IMG/VR virus record: IMGVR_UViG_3300032103_000014
DNA: 34,817 nt
Reading direction: 5' to 3' (one strand)
Source: a virus
Shown here: in pieces, positions 5,195 through 29,505 of the stretch
How positions within the stretch are numbered: position 1 is the first letter of the stretch
Layout: each line of letters opens with the position of its first letter
Translations under genes and position numbers: made by a program
Notes under the pieces: generated by a model
What the model was told of the DNA's origin: nothing
Databases searched by the model: none
The model's input: only the letters and a program-made list of their open reading frames with translations

Positions 5195-5629
5195 ATGATG
5201 ACAACAAGAGAAGCGTTGCTAGGTGTATTCTGTAACAACTTTACAACTTACTTTCGTAGCCACGTTGCACACGTTAACATTATGGGCCGCAACTTCGCTA
5301 GCGATCACGCATTGCTAGGCGGCATATATGAAGAACTGCAAGGACAAATTGATATTCTAGCAGAACTATTACGCACACTAGGCGAGTTTATGCCCAATGA
5401 CATTCAAACTGTAGTCAATGAAAGCATTATGAGTAGTTCAGCAATGGATGGTTCTAGTGAAGATTTGCTAATGGCAGTAAGAGAAGATGTCGGCGGCTTA
5501 AAAGCATTATATGAAGATCTAATGCTCTGCGCCGAAGATGAAGGATTGCAAGAAATTGCAAACTATGCTCAAGAAAGAATCTTGGCATTGGCTAAACATA
5601 TTTGGATGCTTGAGGCTACATTAAGTTAA
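5195..5629 (+). CDS. Dps-like / ferritin-like four-helix-bundle protein
   Basis: 144 aa. The segment SHVAHVNIMGRNFASDHALLGGIYEELQGQIDILAELLRTLG matches the Dps pattern (H-W/V-N-v-x-G-x-x-F ... H ... E ... ID-x-x-AE-R-x-x-x-LG). An acidic helix follows (EDEGLQEIANYAQERI). RBS AAGGAAA upstream. Confidence 0.7.
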   Translation: MMTTREALLGVFCNNFTTYFRSHVAHVNIMGRNFASDHALLGGIYEELQGQIDILAELLRTLGEFMPNDIQTVVNESIMSSSAMDGSSEDLLMAVREDVGGLKALYEDLMLCAEDEGLQEIANYAQERILALAKHIWMLEATLS

Positions 5630-6129
5630 GTAGCGTTGGGCTTGTCAGTGAGGTCAACTCGTTTATAAGCCTGACTTCCTCTTAATGTATAACCAGCATT
5701 TGTATGTAACTTAAGAAAGGCTGTTTGTTCTTGGCGTAATGTTGTGCTAGCGATAACAGGAATTTGACGCATTTTTGCAAATCCTTCCCAAATCTCAAGC
5801 ATATCTTTAATTAACATTACACGCTCTCTAGTAGATAACGCAGGATCCACGTGAGCCATACGGACTAGTAATATTTCGTCATCGCTCCAAATGCTACGTT
5901 CTCCAGCGCGAGCCCAAGTATATGCAATTATACCGCGTTCATCGCGTACTAGGACAATTAAATCACTGGCTCGTTTGTAGTTTTGATTTACTAATCCTGT
6001 TACTAAATGATGTGCTAGCACATTAGGATCAAATTTGAATAGTGTGTCTACTTCGTACTGTACTTTTAAGTTAAGCGACATTAGTTCAGTAGCATCGTTG
6101 ATTGTGGCGTAAGCCCAGGTATATTTCAT
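5626..6129 (-). CDS. GNAT-like acetyltransferase (tentative). This is the only minus-strand gene
   Basis: The track ORF is 5626..6159. I prefer the ATG at 6129 (MKYTWAY...), which is preceded by AAGGA on the minus strand. The C-terminal layout (VDPALSTRERVMLIKDML...IPVIASTTL...FLKLHTNAGYTLRG) resembles GNAT beta4-alpha3 ... beta5-alpha4. The Q/RxxGxG/A motif is not clean. Its stop codon shares a TTAA with the Dps stop (5626-5629). Confidence 0.45.
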   Translation of the reverse strand: MKYTWAYATINDATELMSLNLKVQYEVDTLFKFDPNVLAHHLVTGLVNQNYKRASDLIVLVRDERGIIAYTWARAGERSIWSDDEILLVRMAHVDPALSTRERVMLIKDMLEIWEGFAKMRQIPVIASTTLRQEQTAFLKLHTNAGYTLRGSQAYKRVDLTDKPNAT

Positions 6130-6179
6130 AGCAGTTCCTTTACAAGTATGTTGATGCACTATTTACACTAAATAAATGT

Positions 6180-8596: not shown

Positions 8597-10210
8597 ATGT
8601 TGGGCACAGATATTATTATGTCTCGTGCCTTGCGTTACGTTGTAGACGAAAACAACTTAACTATAGATGCACTGAAATATATTCCGGGCCCGTTAAAGGC
8701 TGACTTGCAAGACTTGGCACTTAGTATTGCCGATGATATGCAAACAAATCAACTCAAATACTTTAGACCATTTGAGCATCAAAAGAAGTTCTTTGCTACG
8801 GGCACAGCAGACCGCCGCGGCATCCTTGCTGCTAACCGAGTTGGTAAAACAGTTAGTACTTGTTTTGAAACTGCAATGCACTTAACTGGGCGTTATCCAG
8901 ATTGGTGGGAAGGTTATCGCTTTACGCAGCCAATTACTGCTATGGTAGCAGGTGAAGGTTGGAGTCAGGTTGCACTTGTATTGCAAGCAGAACTATTGGG
9001 CACACAGGATATTAAGATTACCGAGCAGTTAGGCACAGGAGCAATACCACGTGATTGCATTGTTGTTGATACAATGCGTAATGATGGTGCTAACTGTATT
9101 GGTTGTGAGATTAAACACGTGAGCGGTGGCAAAAGTTATTTGTTGTTTGCCAACTATACACAGGAAGTTCGTCAGTTGCAGGGTTTTAAACTTAACCTAG
9201 CAGTATTTGATGAACAACCACCGGATGATTTCTTCAGTGAAGTTGTTACACGTACTGCAACTACACAAGGTAAAGTATTATGTTCGTTCACTCCACTAAA
9301 AGGCTTGAACGGATTGGTTAGTAAGTTTTGGAACACAGAACCCGGATATGAATACATTCGTGTAAGTTGGGATGATGTGCCTGAGTACGATCCTTGGGGA
9401 CAACCATTCTTATTAAATGAGACACGTAGACAGTTAGAACGAGATTATTTGCCGCACGAGCGCGAAGCACGTATTGCAGGTAAGCCTGTTATGGGTAAGG
9501 GTGCAGTATTCCAATTGAACAACTGGCCTACATACAAGACAGGTGACTATAACTTTACAACGATGCCTAACTTGCATCGTGTAATTGCACTTGACTTGGG
9601 TTTAGTTAACGACAAAACTGTTATTAGTTTGATGTATTGGGATCCATATGAACGCACAGCATTCTTACATAAGCAAATTGTGGTACAAGGTGTTGAGGAG
9701 GCTGTACCTACTCAGTATATCAACCACTTACTTCGCCCTGAAGTGTTTGGCACTCCTATCGTTTTACCTGCTGATGCTAGCACTAGTGGTAGATACACAA
9801 TGAGCAGCAACAGTATCAGGGAATTGTTTGAGGAATACGAACTAAATGTATATGACAAAGCAATTATGAACCCACCTGATACACAAGGTCGCCAAACAAA
9901 CCACAAAGCATACGGCATTAACCAAATGCGCCAAATGCTAGAAGTAGGTAGTTTGATGGTTAATGAGAACTGCACATACTTTTTGAATGAAGCAAGAAAC
10001 TATTTCGTAGATGAAAAGGGAAGATTTAGCGATCCAGATGACGCCATTGATTCTTGTAGGTACGCACTATTGGCTTGCTTGCAAGGAATTGCTGAGCCTT
10101 GGGACAATAGAACCCCGGCAGAGCGTATGCGAGCACAGCGAGACAGGTATGTAACCAGAGATTACGCATCTAAGCCCGCAATTAAACAAGTTTACAACCC
10201 AGGAAATTAA
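8597..10210 (+). CDS. terL: terminase large subunit
   Basis: 537 aa. Walker-A-like AANRVGKTVS followed by HLTGRYPDWWEG. Walker-B-like LNLAVFDEQPP. A C-terminal nuclease-like region has conserved acidic residues (IALDLG..., DDAIDSCRYAL). It sits upstream of the portal. Confidence 0.88.
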   Translation: MLGTDIIMSRALRYVVDENNLTIDALKYIPGPLKADLQDLALSIADDMQTNQLKYFRPFEHQKKFFATGTADRRGILAANRVGKTVSTCFETAMHLTGRYPDWWEGYRFTQPITAMVAGEGWSQVALVLQAELLGTQDIKITEQLGTGAIPRDCIVVDTMRNDGANCIGCEIKHVSGGKSYLLFANYTQEVRQLQGFKLNLAVFDEQPPDDFFSEVVTRTATTQGKVLCSFTPLKGLNGLVSKFWNTEPGYEYIRVSWDDVPEYDPWGQPFLLNETRRQLERDYLPHEREARIAGKPVMGKGAVFQLNNWPTYKTGDYNFTTMPNLHRVIALDLGLVNDKTVISLMYWDPYERTAFLHKQIVVQGVEEAVPTQYINHLLRPEVFGTPIVLPADASTSGRYTMSSNSIRELFEEYELNVYDKAIMNPPDTQGRQTNHKAYGINQMRQMLEVGSLMVNENCTYFLNEARNYFVDEKGRFSDPDDAIDSCRYALLACLQGIAEPWDNRTPAERMRAQRDRYVTRDYASKPAIKQVYNPGN

Positions 10211-25019: not shown

Positions 25020-25068
25020 TAAATAACTATGCTGTATTAAAGGCAGCGCATATATCCTTTTGAAGTTT

Positions 25069-26901: not shown

Positions 26902-26933
26902 AATAACCCTGCTAAACCCAGGGTTATTTTTTT
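26902..26933 (+). terminator. rho-independent terminator
   Basis: AATAACCCTG (26902-26911), 7-nt loop, CAGGGTTATT (26919-26928), with the T run extending to 26933. Confidence 0.85.
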
Positions 26934-26962
26934 GCGTTTTTTACCCCATTTACCACTAGTTC

Positions 26963-26992
26963 TTGACAAGCAAGGTAAATACATTATATAAT
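26963..26992 (+). promoter_or_regulatory. sigma70 consensus-hexamer promoter (TTGACA - 18 nt - TATAAT)
   Basis: TTGACA at 26963-26968 and TATAAT at 26987-26992. It lies about 20 nt upstream of the ATG at 27013 (RBS AAGGAGA). Confidence 0.75.
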
Positions 26993-27012: not shown

Positions 27013-27447
27013 ATGGCTAATGATCAAACATTACGAAAAGTCAGTGAGTGGCTTAGTAGTTGTCAAAACAGGTTTGCTAATATGCAAGCCGCAGGTTTGG
27101 ATATGAATGGATATCCAGCAATTAAACAAGCAATGGAGAACTTTGATAAAAAGGGCTATTTCTCAGTAGGTGAGATACAGTATCTTTTTAACAGAAGTCA
27201 CCCAAAAGGCGCACTTCCAAAATATAACAAGCACAAAGGCTATCACAAAACAATGGGTGATATGTTAGAGTGCCCGCTCAAAGAACTAATTGATAGTAAC
27301 TTAGTCAATTGGCGTAGTGGGCAAAACGGCGTTATACAGCCTGCACTGATACAGGCAATTAGTGAAGAAACCAGTTGGGAATGGCGTATGGGCAATCTAC
27401 GTGCCAAATATAATACATCATTTAGCGACTTGTTTGATACAAAATGA
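27013..27447 (+). CDS. hypothetical protein (144 aa)
   Basis: Strong RBS and promoter directly upstream. No motif recognised. Confidence 0.65.
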   Translation: MANDQTLRKVSEWLSSCQNRFANMQAAGLDMNGYPAIKQAMENFDKKGYFSVGEIQYLFNRSHPKGALPKYNKHKGYHKTMGDMLECPLKELIDSNLVNWRSGQNGVIQPALIQAISEETSWEWRMGNLRAKYNTSFSDLFDTK

Positions 27448-28250
27448 ATCACTATACTTACTTGCTGTCTACCAATAACAGCAATAACCAAACCATCTAC
27501 TACATCGGTGTTAGGTCCAGTAAGTGTGCTCCAGCCGATGATATCACATATATGGGCAGTTCCAAATTAGTAGACTTTATGCGAACGCTTGATATTAAGT
27601 TTACTAAAGAAATTCTCGCTACATACGAAACCCGCGAACAAGCAGAACTAGGTGAGCAAGAGTTCTTTAATACACTTGAGTGCATTGAACGTGCAGAGTT
27701 CATAAACTTACATAGTCATAAAAACCCATATGAAGTAGGTAGGGCAACAACTAAAATGAGTTACTTCAAGCAGTTGTTCCCGCAACTAAAACCTGGGCAT
27801 TTTGTTGATTCATTTAATAAAATTACACAAGCAGACTTTAAGTTTTGTGTGTTCAAAGGGAACCTATATTGGTACTTTATCAATCACCCTGATAACCTAA
27901 AGCATTATTGGCACACCACTGGAACCAAAACATATTGGCCAGGACGCAGTGACCGGTTACTATCTATTAAACACAGTGAACCAAAATACTACCTAACTGA
28001 TGTTGAAACAGTATCCGGTACACCTTTTGAACAAATACAACAACTTCTAGATTACCATTATGTGAAAGGTCAACGCACACACATACTAGAAACTATTGAA
28101 GAACAAATGAAATTATTAGGTAATAACGAGCGAGAATCTGCTATAGAACTCATAAAACCGCAGATTTTACCCGATAATCGCTATATTTTTAACAGAATTG
28201 TTAAATACAATACAAAGGTAAACAAGCAGTTGACAAAACCAAACTGCTAA
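27444..28250 (+). CDS. GIY-YIG (Seg-like) homing endonuclease
   Basis: 268 aa. The N-terminus reads HYTYLLSTNNSNNQTIYYIGVRS...DDITYMGSSKLVDFMRTLDIKFTKEILATYETREQAELGEQEFF. This matches the xxYxY ... YIG ... Y-x-GS ... F-x-K-E-I-L ... E-x-A ... E pattern of free-standing phage GIY-YIG endonucleases. A long C-terminal region would serve for DNA binding. ATGA overlap with the upstream ORF. Confidence 0.65.
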   Translation: MNHYTYLLSTNNSNNQTIYYIGVRSSKCAPADDITYMGSSKLVDFMRTLDIKFTKEILATYETREQAELGEQEFFNTLECIERAEFINLHSHKNPYEVGRATTKMSYFKQLFPQLKPGHFVDSFNKITQADFKFCVFKGNLYWYFINHPDNLKHYWHTTGTKTYWPGRSDRLLSIKHSEPKYYLTDVETVSGTPFEQIQQLLDYHYVKGQRTHILETIEEQMKLLGNNERESAIELIKPQILPDNRYIFNRIVKYNTKVNKQLTKPNC

Positions 28251-28258
28251 CTTATAAT
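28230..28258 (+). promoter_or_regulatory. perfect sigma70 consensus promoter (TTGACA - 17 nt - TATAAT) firing into the ORF-free gap
   Basis: TTGACA at 28230-28235, a 17-nt spacer, and TATAAT at 28253-28258. It overlaps the last codons and the stop (28248-28250) of the GIY-YIG gene. The predicted start is about 28264-28266. Confidence 0.8.
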
Positions 28259-28264
28259 AATTAA

Positions 28265-28749
28265 ATGGTACAACACTATGGCACATCTAAATTGGGAAAA
28301 AGTTTCTAAGCGTCGTAGCAAAACAAATCATTAGGCACTTCAACCGCTAACAAGCAAAAATGTAATGGGGGTTAAAACACGACCCGCCCGTATACTACAA
28401 AATTTACCTAAGTCAATGGCGTGAAAGGTCTAGACTGAATTCGGTTACCAGGCGATGGCATATGGTTGCTTTAAAAGAGCGTGAAACGAGACGGATGGAT
28501 AATAAAGTTTGTAGTTAGGTCCCATACCAAGGGCATAAACTAGATAAACCTAACTTGGGCTGGCTTACACGTAGAAAATGCGTGTTGCTAACTTATGACT
28601 TCACTTAATGACATCTCTTGTAAAACAATTAATTATTAAACAATTACAACAAAGGATAACAAGCCAAACGCATCACTCCGTTCGCGTTTAGCAATAAAAT
28701 GTATGTCTGCGACGCTCGTCTGCGACATCACTTGCAGCACATACATTTT
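28265..28749 (+). ncRNA. candidate untranslated transcript of about 485 nt running from promoter to terminator. Function unknown
   Basis: It is bounded by the consensus promoter and the terminator-like hairpin at 28696-28749. No ORF of 60 aa or more exists in any frame. Local helices: AGTTAGGT (28513-28520) with ACCTAACT (28548-28555), ACACG (28567-28571) with CGTGT (28581-28585), and AAACGC (28666-28671) with GCGTTT (28684-28689). GCGTGAAA is a direct repeat at 28419 and 28479. No known RNA family recognised. Confidence 0.4.
28696..28749 (+). terminator. terminator-like long hairpin flanked by an A-tract and a T-tract
   Basis: AAAATGTATGT (28696-28706) pairs perfectly with ACATACATTTT (28739-28749). 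CTGC (28707-28710) pairs with GCAG (28834 is not involved; the partner is 28734-28737) across a 1-nt bulge. The apical region carries the direct repeat CTGCGAC twice. T-rich sequence follows. Confidence 0.5.
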
Positions 28750-28770
28750 AACTTGCATTTATTTCTTTTA

Positions 28771-28861
28771 GTTCAATTGAAAGACGAAGTGCAATAAAAA
28801 CACATCAATTGAACGAGCGACAGCGAAGTTCCTGATGTGTTTTTGAGTCCTCGCAGGACTC
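28771..28861 (+). promoter_or_regulatory. cluster of three stem-loops, two overlapping and mutually interfering; attenuator-like
   Basis: Hairpin 1: GTTCAATTGA (28771-28780) with TCAATTGAAC (28805-28814), 10 bp. Hairpin 2: AAAAACACATCA (28796-28807) with TGATGTGTTTTT (28833-28844), 12 bp, with terminator architecture. Hairpin 3: GAGTCCT-CGC-AGGACTC (28845-28861). The right arm of hairpin 1 overlaps the left arm of hairpin 2 and fills its loop. Confidence 0.5.
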
Positions 28862-28953
28862 CATTAAGTGATAACATTACACCTGTTAATTACTACATAA
28901 CTCAAGTAAAATAAACAATTAACTATAAATATATTAAACAAAAAGGAAATGAA

Positions 28954-29505
28954 ATGAGAGGAAGACCAAAAGGCTATAGCCCTGGACCTAGACGAGAAGT
29001 TGACAGCACTTCTGGTGAATGGACTTGGAGCCACGAACGTTTACAAGCCAAAATACAAACAGCAGATGACGCGAGTTGCTGGAATTGGACCGGCGCACGA
29101 GGCCCACAAGGAAACTTATTTGGCGCATATAAAAACGGGCAACAACAAATGACCCAAGCCAATAGACTAATCTACGCCCGTCACACCAACACAGACATTA
29201 CAGGCAAGCACGTGTTTATGACTTGCCGAAACAAACATTGCTGTAACTACAATCATATGACAACACTTGCACAACCAAAGCGAGGCCCACAAACAATTAC
29301 ACTAGTAATCGGCTTCCACGAACAGCAAGCATTAACAGCAGAACAAAACTTACAAGCAAAACTACTGCTCAAAACAGCAGAAGTCATTGACCAAGGAATT
29401 GACCACGAGTTTGAATACAAATGGTTCAAAGTAACAAAAAAGTCTTGGTTCCTAGCACAACTAACAGACCCAGAATCAGCAAGTAAATTTACTATAAGGA
29501 AATGA
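28954..29505 (+). CDS. HNH-fold protein with a substituted catalytic His, likely a nuclease-dead DNA-binding derivative
   Basis: 183 aa. The segment CWNWTGARGPQGNLFGAY...ANRLIYARH...GKHVFMTCRNKHCCNYNHM aligns by eye with the intact HNH at 32537 (CIEWTGSKLPSGYGRL...AHRYVAAQH...GKIVCHKCDNPSCVNIDHL). The first His is replaced by Met, and the D of CDN by R. The N-terminus has an RGRPKG AT-hook-like motif. Confidence 0.6.
   Translation: MRGRPKGYSPGPRREVDSTSGEWTWSHERLQAKIQTADDASCWNWTGARGPQGNLFGAYKNGQQQMTQANRLIYARHTNTDITGKHVFMTCRNKHCCNYNHMTTLAQPKRGPQTITLVIGFHEQQALTAEQNLQAKLLLKTAEVIDQGIDHEFEYKWFKVTKKSWFLAQLTDPESASKFTIRK

Follow-up and report, generated by a model that had tools for sequence, protein, structure and literature searches.

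The largest non-coding stretch in the 34,762-bp circular genome of this phage (positions 28251-28953, 703 nt) contains a 224-nt folded RNA that is previously undescribed: it has no counterpart among Rfam families, tRNAs, ORFs, plasmid origins or published sequences. None of the 4227 models of Rfam 15 has a match at gathering thresholds anywhere in the window, i.e. the whole stretch of 34,817 nucleotides that was analysed, which agrees with the failure of the first-pass annotation to recognise a known RNA family here. At E-values up to 10 the gap gives only scattered Rfam matches far below threshold, and across five homologous loci no consistent match falls on the element. ARAGORN found no tRNA or tmRNA genes in the whole window, DNA searches with the gap against 50,697 phage records and (blastn, word size 11) 72,556 plasmids came back empty, and literature searches with the invariant blocks of the RNA returned nothing relevant. 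Judged from the comparison of homologous sequences presented below, this core is a genuine gene for an RNA or an RNA element with a control function, and not junk.

The gap carries no ORF of at least 60 aa on either strand, as had been claimed from a first reading of the DNA; the longest ORF that touches it (56 aa, minus strand) extends into the next gene. Codon-usage scores across the gap are negative in six of six frames and gave no sign of a hidden coding signal, and a recoded or hidden gene was rejected because all three kinds of stop codon are present in every + frame. Two other apparent large gaps in the genome proved to be coding, one of them (5630-6179) holding a minus-strand gene and the other, at the assembly junction, being crossed by a 379-aa ORF. 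Relatives differ widely in what they carry between the 144-aa gene and the HNH-like gene, a hypervariable slot which in L020/L021 holds a different non-coding sequence of 380 nt. In three others (L002-L004) the slot is occupied by genes of 286-391 aa, and the gap was rejected as a decayed form of these, since it shows no tblastn similarity to them. Proteins of the relatives give no tblastn match in the gap outside 28278-28351, the only part covered by a homologous decayed ORF, and the interpretation of the whole gap as a gene or pseudogene was therefore rejected as well. In homologues the structured core has no ORF and carries indels. Among near-identical strains 20 differences lie nearby and none within the gap, which is also without variation in three exact-copy contigs (L005-L007). 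The gap and its surroundings comprise the following features:

26902-26928, + strand: terminator, followed by the other perfect promoter at 26963-26992
27444-28250, + strand: GIY-YIG-like homing endonuclease gene, inserted downstream of the 144-aa gene and ahead of the decayed small gene
28230-28258, + strand: promoter, sigma-70-type, within the final codons of the GIY-YIG-like gene
28278-28351, + strand: remnant of a decayed ExoX-C-like gene, ~75 nt
28367-28590, + strand: structured RNA core, 224 nt, nine helices, comparative evidence
28597-28661, + strand: AT-rich linker between core and hairpins
28666-28689, + strand: hairpin H0, -8.3 kcal/mol, z = -3.5
28691-28770, + strand: hairpin H1 and U-rich tail, candidate intrinsic terminator, -26.7 kcal/mol, z = -5.5
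28771-28814, + strand: weaker hairpin GTTCAATTGA/TCAATTGAAC, z = -2.0, overlapping H2 and mutually exclusive with it
28795-28845, + strand: hairpin H2 with A-tract, 12-bp stem and U-tract, -20.8 kcal/mol, z = -5.1
28846-28862, + strand: hairpin H3, GAGTCCT-CGC-AGGACTC, z = -4.1
28863-28953, + strand: AT-rich upstream region of the HNH-like gene, with its ribosome-binding site AAGGAAA (28944-28950)
28954-29505, + strand: HNH-like gene, matching PHROG endonuclease families (E = 2.6e-10)

The fold of the core is a closed multi-branch structure. Helix Pb closes it around two domains, one with a long helix (Pc-Pg) whose periphery varies and covaries, the other (Ph) nearly invariant and made up of a hairpin with an internal loop. 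The helices of the core are:

28369-73/28381-85, + strand: Pa, 5' hairpin
28386-90/28556-60, + strand: Pb, closing helix, invariant
28394-28404/28505-15 plus 28407-08/28497-98, + strand: Pc
28411-14/28433-36 plus 28418-20/28428-30, + strand: Pd
28439-43/28492-96 plus 28445-46/28489-90, + strand: Pe
28448-49/28464-65 plus 28451-53/28458-61, + strand: Pf
28467-70/28478-81, + strand: Pg
28516-20/28548-52 plus 28521-23/28531-33, + strand: Ph, invariant
28561-64/28587-90 plus 28567-73/28579-85, + strand: Pi, 3' hairpin, weakly supported

In a plain MAFFT alignment of the homologues 93% of the cells pair and 16 of the 62 pairs show compensatory changes; the alignment fitted to the model raises the latter number to 21 of 62, against only 1-6 covarying pairs in controls with the register slid. 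Five sequences that were found later, and thus served as an out-of-sample check, pair at 91.8%. Pairing among homologues reaches 94.5% on the + strand as compared to 82.9% on the - strand, and the G-U pairs assign the RNA to the + strand, i.e. to the same direction as the promoter. The pairs of Pb and Ph do not vary at all. The folding energy of the core alone is unremarkable relative to shuffled sequences (z = -0.31), so that the evidence for it is comparative rather than thermodynamic. About 100 of its nucleotides are nearly invariant across phages with no more than 45-70% protein identity. The helices noted at first sight at 28513-28555 and 28567-28585 turn out to be Ph and Pi of this conserved RNA. 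The covariation likewise bears out the proposal of a discrete non-coding RNA made in the first-pass annotation, with the correction that the conserved part spans ~225 nt (28367-28590) and not 485 nt. The direct repeat GCGTGAAA reported there does occur, at 28420 and 28480, and is probably due to chance, because its first copy is not conserved in the homologous sequences. Two copies of ACAC, one in the loop of Pa and one in the 5' strand of Pi, can each pair with a single invariant GUGUU, a pairing for which we found no covariation support; a search for further covarying helices or a pseudoknot in the core gave only invariant or ambiguous candidates.

Homologues of the core were found in about eight lineages of related phages from lake, marine and other metagenomes (our set comprises L015, L017/L018, L028, L026/L032, L025, L029/L030 and L031), with 71-87% identity among lineages. 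Region 28310-28591 is 81.6% identical to its counterpart in L015, as against 65-73% for the DNA of the flanking genes, and the neighbouring proteins are 44-66% identical to those of relatives; by this measure the RNA is better conserved than the proteins of the phages that carry it. Several close relatives (L002-L004, L011-L013 and L020-L024) have no core, so that the RNA is dispensable or replaceable; a covariance model detected no distant copies in these core-less genomes. Where present, it starts in relatives directly after the stop codon of an ORF. This upstream gene varies (an 89-aa ExoX-C-like protein, a 54-73-aa zinc-ribbon-like protein or, in L025, a 78-aa ORF without a match), and so does the downstream one (HNH-like, SprT-like or others); since both neighbours differ between homologues, the RNA is not bound to one regulated gene. 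Two matches, L016 (in a genome contig of a Peregrinibacteria MAG) and L027 (from a metagenome), were rejected as due to chance. The 19-mer ACACGACCCGCCCGTATAC had no match in the metagenome collection, and anchoring through the HNH-like and GIY-YIG proteins in IMG/VR found nothing.

The stretch between promoter and core bears the traces of a lost gene. Two ends of a small protein, MAHLNWEKVSKRR... (N-terminal) and ...VAKQIIRHFNR-stop (C-terminal, in another frame), are joined there by an out-of-frame internal deletion of ~190 nt. The corresponding 89-aa ORF is intact in L015 (8862-9131), L017 and L028, with 79-80% amino acid identity, and matches Pfam ExoX-like_C with an E-value of 1.1e-4, below the curated cutoff. 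A gene decayed here and intact in relatives, which had been named at the outset as evidence against a non-coding RNA, was thus found for 28278-28351 only. As the ORF is destroyed in this genome and the RNA is intact with a perfect promoter of its own, the value of the RNA is independent of the upstream protein.

The earlier assignment of the upstream gene to the GIY-YIG nucleases is plausible: it matches a PHROG homing endonuclease family (E = 5.6e-4), its distant relatives have NUMOD3, and its invariant residues Y4, Y6, Y20, G22, R24, E71 and N88 agree with the catalytic pattern of I-TevI; Pfam gave no GIY-YIG match for this protein. Comparison of upstream regions revealed that the gene is absent from the RNA-bearing L015, L017, L028, L026/L032, L025 and L029/L030. 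It is a lineage-specific insertion whose homologues occur in unrelated phage contexts, followed there by gaps of only 33-287 nt. The gap was rejected as cargo of a GIY-YIG element, given that homologues in other phages are not trailed by gap sequence. The HNH-like protein (183 aa) has neither a Pfam domain nor a RuvC domain, and its gene is kept in relatives with and without the RNA. Sequence searches of the PDB with both flanking proteins returned nothing. The accessory early region that holds the core further encodes a DNA methylase, a SprT-like protease and nuclease genes.

The TTGACA-17-TATAAT promoter described earlier at 28230-28258 is confirmed, with 12 of 12 consensus positions and directed into the gap; from promoter spacing, transcription would start near 28265. 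The genome has a single further 12/12 site, at 26963, and we estimate from base composition that ~0.04 such perfect sites would be expected by chance. Together with the terminator before it (26902..26992) the other site forms the head of the early operon. Relatives have promoters of 11-12/12 at the head of the same operon; in most of them this protein-coding operon carries the RNA at its 3' end, and the RNA lacks a separate promoter. The order promoter, RNA, terminator-like hairpin, proposed for this genome, also recurs in relatives. No promoter of at least 10/12 is found here in 28863-28953 or between the hairpins and position 28954, while L025 and L029/L030 have, after the hairpins, promoters of 11/12 and 10/12, respectively. 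The strongest promoter-like sites on the minus strand of the gap (28236 and 28192) score 9/12 and lie upstream of the predicted transcript start.

The folding signal of the gap as a whole (z = -4.5 on the + strand, z = -2.4 on the - strand, relative to shuffled sequences) comes from the hairpins H0-H3, and three of the five perfect inverted repeats of at least 10 bp (loop of at most 45 nt) in the genome lie within 28695-28844. The linker that precedes them is 25-70 nt long in homologues and often contains AAUGA; the reading frames after its AUG are not conserved and measure 3 to 79 codons. The elements noted here on first inspection are real. The helix at 28666-28689 is H0, at the place of which L015, L017, L028, L026 and L025 have a hairpin of different stem sequence. 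The A-tract/stem/T-tract hairpin placed near 28696-28749 is H1 (28695-28750), with 12-bp perfect arms (28695-28706/28739-28750) extendable to about 20 bp; L026, L025 and L017 carry a long hairpin with a U-rich tail at this place. The two overlapping stem-loops are the hairpin at 28771-28814, which was not seen conserved in homologues, and 28796-28844 (H2), and the GC-rich clamp is H3. Both H1 and H2 combine very stable stems and U-rich tails with loops of 23-25 nt, AU-rich stems and a U-run that partly pairs with the A-tract; a consensus terminator scan called neither of them, H1 because its loop exceeds 8 nt. The loop of H2 is related to the consensus AGAGCGAAGCGA-N-AGCGUAGYGAU of relatives, which keep this motif on wholly different stem sequences, even in L020, which has no core. 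Formal covariation analysis of H2 was abandoned because MAFFT set the stems in two registers, and the argument for conservation of H2 and H3 is a direct reading of the sequences. A short hairpin, different in sequence each time, stands at the place of H3 in every homologue, in several of them capped by a GCGNAGC mini-hairpin, a motif ~40-fold enriched in the spacers of relatives and absent from the spacer of this genome. In homologues, 200-350 nt with U-tailed hairpins lie between the RNA and the next genes. The upstream regions of genes homologous to the HNH-like gene have a TAAATAA...AAAGG motif in common.

Our preferred explanation, which we hold tentatively and a little short of evenly balanced, is that the gap works as a small unit of early transcription with an RNA product, whose core likely acts in trans in early infection. 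Host RNA polymerase, as the strength and placement of the perfect promoter suggest, would start near 28265, cross ~100 nt with the dead-gene remnant and then the 224-nt core, and mostly stop at H1 and the U-rich stretch behind it (~28755-28770), for a transcript of ~490 nt. H2, H3 and the AT-rich stretch would insulate and control the next operon, and the folded core itself may be the selected product: a decoy, sponge or scaffold that would bind a host or phage factor, most likely in trans. The ~100 nearly invariant nucleotides amid divergent proteins fit recognition of a highly conserved partner. The position of the RNA at an operon 3' end without its own promoter, as in most relatives, would fit a cis-acting or 3'-UTR role equally well. 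No antisense target of the RNA longer than 11 nt occurs in the phage genome, an observation that is neutral for the protein-binding model.

Control of transcription in cis, to which the long regulated leader of the first-pass annotation would correspond and in which the core would drive put-like processive antitermination on its own polymerase or, as an attenuator, sense a signal and set passage through H0-H3 into the HNH-like operon, seems to us unlikely, though by no means negligible. A promoter, a structured RNA, several terminator-like hairpins and an operon make up a put/nut-type anatomy, and the putRNA of HK022 acts alone on the elongation complex (PMC9378689). Contact with RNA polymerase would fit the strict sequence conservation, and the lack of a promoter of at least 10/12 between hairpins and position 28954 suggests that read-through, and hence cis control, may matter; against this, L025 and L029/L030 do carry strong promoters there, the downstream genes differ between homologues, and the core-hairpin spacing varies from 25 to 100 nt. 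The ACAC copies competing for the invariant GUGUU hint at a switch, but this alternative pairing has no covariation support, and with 224 nt and nine helices the core is far larger than put. The stems of H1 and H2 are unusually long, and very long stems make terminators resist antitermination (PMC10325885).

The remaining explanations find less room. The idea, raised in the first-pass annotation, of a replication origin of the ColE1 RNA II or T7 kind, activated or primed by the transcript of the promoter, with the core comparable to RNA II and the hairpins as single-strand initiation signals, is improbable: we found nothing that favours it, plasmid replicon similarity, DnaA boxes and an antisense promoter over the RNA being absent and the GC skew flat and uninformative. 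Strong promoter, structured RNA, AT-rich linker and conserved hairpins are all present, and no replication genes were recognised among the scanned proteins of this phage; core-less close relatives are nevertheless hard to square with an essential origin. Motifs of the GCGNAGC type, so enriched in the relatives' spacers, occur at the G4/St-1 priming sites, RSF1010 ssiA and N4 early promoters (PMC13037366), but the spacer of this genome lacks them. There is an equally slight chance that the core matures the early transcript as a ribozyme or another self-processing element, which would release itself from the upstream mRNA or process that of the adjacent nuclease. Catalytic RNAs are conserved in this manner, with an invariant centre and a periphery that covaries, nuclease genes adjoin the core, and in relatives it directly follows a stop codon; on the other hand, no Rfam ribozyme or intron family matches (the group I intron model RF00028 not even at E up to 10, and no conserved downstream exon was found), the helices are nested, without a P3/P7 arrangement as in group I, and there is no continuous exon reading frame, the upstream ORF being dead in this genome. 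Very improbable, finally, is a DNA-level signal (for packaging, recombination or an array of bound proteins) or mere decay after a homing-endonuclease rearrangement. The inserted GIY-YIG gene, the decayed small gene next to it and the hypervariable slot speak for such a history, but compensatory pair-preserving changes are not expected of duplex-DNA sites or junk, and neither are many G-U pairs on one strand only or conservation above that of coding DNA.

Mid-sized RNAs with intricate covarying folds and long invariant stretches are uncommon, and those with a solved function tend to be ribozymes, riboswitches or binders of core cellular machines. That the core founds a new functional class of phage RNA, whether a reprogrammer of host transcription or translation, a new ribozyme or an origin activator or primer in a phage group without recognisable replication genes, is possible, if on balance doubtful; as an example of reprogramming, it could be an antiterminator of the put kind, at three times the size of any described so far. 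The RNA sits in the host-takeover region of an uncultivated group of lake and ocean phages, and with its own perfect promoter it outlasted the insertion of a homing endonuclease to which the neighbouring gene fell victim. The RNA is a defined, testable candidate for a new phage use of RNA against or with hosts, and one that screens by folding energy alone would miss, as the hairpins carry the energy signal and the core none.

The put elements of HK022 consist of two stem-loops of about 70 nt. Like putL and putR, the core is phage-encoded and folded, belongs to a predicted early transcript of host polymerase, lies upstream of terminators and genes and is constrained in sequence (PMC9378689). 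The put-type order of parts is found here too (promoter at 28230, core at 28367-28590, hairpins at 28666-28862); the core, however, is a 224-nt multi-branch structure and not two stem-loops, shows no sequence or model similarity to put, and would act on polymerase only by analogy. GOLLD and ROOL are roughly 600-800 nt long. They resemble the core in their comparative discovery in metagenomic and phage sequence, their intricate covarying folds and their non-coding nature (PMC12286853). Both are Rfam families, neither of which matches, whereas the core is smaller and so far restricted to one podophage-like genome group. The gap resembles ColE1 RNA II and the primary origin of T7 in that a strong promoter leads into non-coding sequence that is structured, in part AT-rich and succeeded by hairpins. 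It differs from ColE1 RNA II in the lack of an antisense RNA I-type promoter and of similarity to plasmid replicons, and the element is missing in close relatives; a T7-type origin calls for a promoter followed by an AT-rich unwinding region where replication starts, and this genome has a promoter and an AT-rich linker (28597-28661), the latter shrinking to ~25 nt in relatives. As in HEARO/IscB omega-RNA, a structured RNA of a few hundred nucleotides lies upstream of an HNH-type gene; the HEARO model does not match, however, the neighbour is a 183-aa protein without RuvC, and the same gene often occurs without the RNA. The core finally recalls the pRNA of phi29 as a structured RNA encoded by a podophage and transcribed from an early promoter (here a predicted one), although Rfam finds no pRNA match and this phage encodes a conventional large terminase and portal. 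The phi29 pRNA conserves its structure and not its sequence, whereas the sequence of the core is highly conserved.

Comparison with related contigs shows that the 703-nt gap at 28251-28953 carries a core with a conserved, strand-specific predicted fold whose pairs covary, situated between a perfect host-type promoter and strong hairpins. The first-pass annotation described the region well: the gap holds no ORF of at least 60 aa and all six reading frames score negative for codon usage, the promoter is found as described, and every hairpin listed is present. The features discussed are as follows (L002-L032 denote related or compared contigs or loci):

26902-26992, +, terminator (26902-26928) followed by a second perfect sigma-70 promoter (TTGACA-18-TATAAT, consensus match)
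27444-28250, +, GIY-YIG-like gene
28230-28258, +, promoter TTGACA-17-TATAAT, 12/12 match
28367-28590, +, core, 224 nt
28666-28689, H0, short hairpin, stem sequence different in every lineage
28695-28750, H1, long hairpin, with a U-rich tail after it in L017, L025, L026 and the window
28796-28844, H2, A-tract/stem/U-tract hairpin, stems unrelated in sequence, loop retaining AGAGCGAAGCGA..AGCGUAGYGAU
28846-28862, H3, short GC hairpin
28954-29505, +, HNH-like gene, compared with L015 9645-10210, L002 4056-4638 and L004 5056-5647

The assembly is circular, with a 55-nt terminal overlap (1-55/34763-34817) and a genome of 34,762 bp, in which all genes except one lie on the + strand. Since the other two apparent large gaps turn out to contain genes (5626-6159 on the minus strand, and a 379-aa ORF spanning the assembly junction), the 703-nt gap is the largest non-coding stretch of the genome. 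The sole convincing minus-strand gene, which occupies an apparent 550-nt + strand gap, encodes 177 aa with a positive coding score on its own strand and without a Pfam match. The junction ORF (34475 to 852) contains a Gly/Asp-rich GGC/GAT repeat, and the listed 181-aa ORF 307-852 is merely its C-terminal part. The phage is distant from all cultured ones: its large terminase shares 52% identity with the one encoded by a Manatee Spring metagenomic podovirus, and named phages reach about 35% at most. The structural and lysis genes (terminase at 8597, portal, major head protein, tail genes, endolysin at 25060) precede the gap, which is placed in an apparent host-polymerase early region. The start of this region is marked by 26902-26992, where the only other 12/12 promoter site of the genome (26963) closely follows the terminator, and by equivalent positions in relatives, which carry 11-12/12 promoters.

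IMG/VR contigs L002-L004 share the 144-aa gene that borders the slot, which in them is filled by unrelated protein genes without similarity to the gap; in L003 (10681-11754) and L004 (3245-4420) it codes for a protein of 357-391 aa that belongs to no known family (39% identity between the two). L005-L007, with an identical GIY-YIG protein, have a gap sequence identical to that of the window. An exact 24-mer from the gap led to L015 (IMGVR_UViG_3300037041_000541), whose genes show only 65-73% DNA identity to the window, whereas 28310-28591 aligns to it at 81.6%. L017 and L018 were reached via contigs carrying homologs of the HNH-like protein, and screening the metagenome collection for the best-conserved block, GGTCCCATACCNAGGGCAT, brought in L025 (a Tara Oceans scaffold), L026/L032, L028, L029/L030 and L031. 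Pairwise core identity between lineages is 71-87%, and no extra copies were found in the window or in core-less relatives.

RNAalifold on the window and L015 alone gave 61 pairs, nine with compensatory double changes and none broken. The curated structure has 62 pairs in nine helices (Pa-Pi). When eight sequences are aligned with plain MAFFT, 92.9% of the cells are paired and both sides changed at 16 pairs, against 31-46% and 1-6 pairs for control registers slid by 1-3 columns, and 0/500 column shuffles attained the observed pairing, pairs changed or covariation score. A model-fitted alignment of ten sequences yielded 94.5% pairing and 21 double-changed pairs, so that the covariation test proposed in the first-pass annotation supports the fold. 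The five sequences recovered later than the first version of the structure are 91.8% paired (MAFFT) and contribute novel double changes at seven pairs. Pc, Pd, Pe and Pg are strongly supported; support also exists for Pa and Pf, and that for Pi is weak. Pb and Ph are invariant, hence neither supported nor contradicted by covariation. Pairing is 94.5% on the + and 82.9% on the - strand owing to 70 G-U cells, which favor the + strand, and the promoter points the same way. Folded by itself, the core has unremarkable stability (z = -0.31); the whole-gap z of -4.5 is due to H0-H3. Two ACAC copies (Pa loop, 28376-28380; Pi 5' strand, 28567-28570) could each pair with one GUGUU (28582-28586), a putative pseudoknot or switch; these segments vary little or not at all among the homologs, and covariation decides nothing about them.

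Upstream of the core, an 89-aa ORF is intact in L015, L017 and L028 and stops about 15 nt short of it, with a weak match to an ExoX-like C-terminal domain (E = 1.1e-4). The window retains its first ~13 codons (ATG 28278) and last ~12 (TAA 28349-28351) in different frames, and 28278-28351, directly downstream of the GIY-YIG gene, is therefore a dead gene. The decayed gene that the first-pass annotation considered as an objection is thus real for this segment, and not for the core with its covarying RNA fold. In relatives the operon consists of a 130-145-aa gene, the small ORF and the RNA, headed by an 11-12/12 sigma-70 promoter; the window RNA has its own perfect promoter within the 3' end of the endonuclease gene. 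We read this as selection having retained the RNA rather than the small protein.

The 268-aa upstream protein has the GIY-YIG catalytic pattern and homologs in unrelated phages, and is missing from all other RNA-bearing relatives with the upstream region present. Its family (P0002-P0011) is small and without a Pfam match; the members occur in different phages, each overlapping the stop codon of the gene before it, and in L008 that neighbor is a QSregVF_b-like small protein. The downstream HNH-like protein (183 aa) has a degenerate-looking HNH motif and no Pfam match; it is a single ORF in the window and some relatives and is split in many others into two overlapping ORFs (116-128 and 67-70 aa). 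Of the 20 positions at which the window differs from the near-identical L005/L006, 17 cluster in a 150-nt stretch inside this gene (29091-29244), a local hypervariable patch.

All homologs have 200-350 nt of hairpins past the core, and three of the five perfect inverted repeats of at least 10 bp in the genome lie within 28695-28844. H2 and H3 are also present in L020/L021, in which a different non-coding sequence replaces the core, which assigns the H2/H3 module to the downstream operon. That replacement (~380 nt, L020 936-1320) may be a second, unrelated RNA. Past the hairpins, L025 has an 11/12 and L029/L030 a 10/12 promoter; the window has none of at least 10/12.

The Rfam search suggested in the first-pass annotation matched no family, in agreement with its unrecognized RNA, and no tRNA was detected. 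The gap had no match in phage and plasmid collections, nor did a literature search for the invariant blocks of the core reveal a published sequence. A group I intron and an IscB-associated RNA were rejected, as group I-like exon context and an IscB-type neighbor are lacking.

Given its size, complexity and conservation, a non-trivial biochemical role is plausible for the core. An early transcript of ~490 nt, ending at H1, would yield the folded core, which would act in trans by binding a conserved host or phage factor. This reading, which we favor tentatively, at somewhat under even chances, draws on the core's about 100 nearly invariant nucleotides with a covarying periphery, on flanking genes that differ among lineages on both sides, and on its persistence beside a dead ORF. 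The phage genome contains no antisense target of more than 11 nt. A ribozyme appears improbable, and a DNA-level signal or junk, set against the strand-specific fold, has the slimmest chance. The RNA-activated replication origin proposed earlier is likewise improbable. GCGNAGC mini-hairpins, a type documented both at sites of single-strand priming and in early promoters of N4 (PMC13037366), are ~40-fold enriched in the spacers after the RNA in L015, L017, L025, L028 and L032 (14 in 1.9 kb vs 15 in 83 kb elsewhere) and often cap H2 and H3; the window's own spacer has none, and no DnaA boxes were found.

The main rival to a trans-acting RNA, rather unlikely in our estimate, is a cis-acting element governing whether the downstream operon is reached past H0-H3. 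Its closest precedent is HK022 put (PMC9378689), and H1 and H2, with their unusually long stems, are reminiscent of terminators that resist antitermination (PMC10325885). The core itself represents a new RNA family, outside all described ones; its general kind, structured non-coding RNA carried by phages, is familiar.
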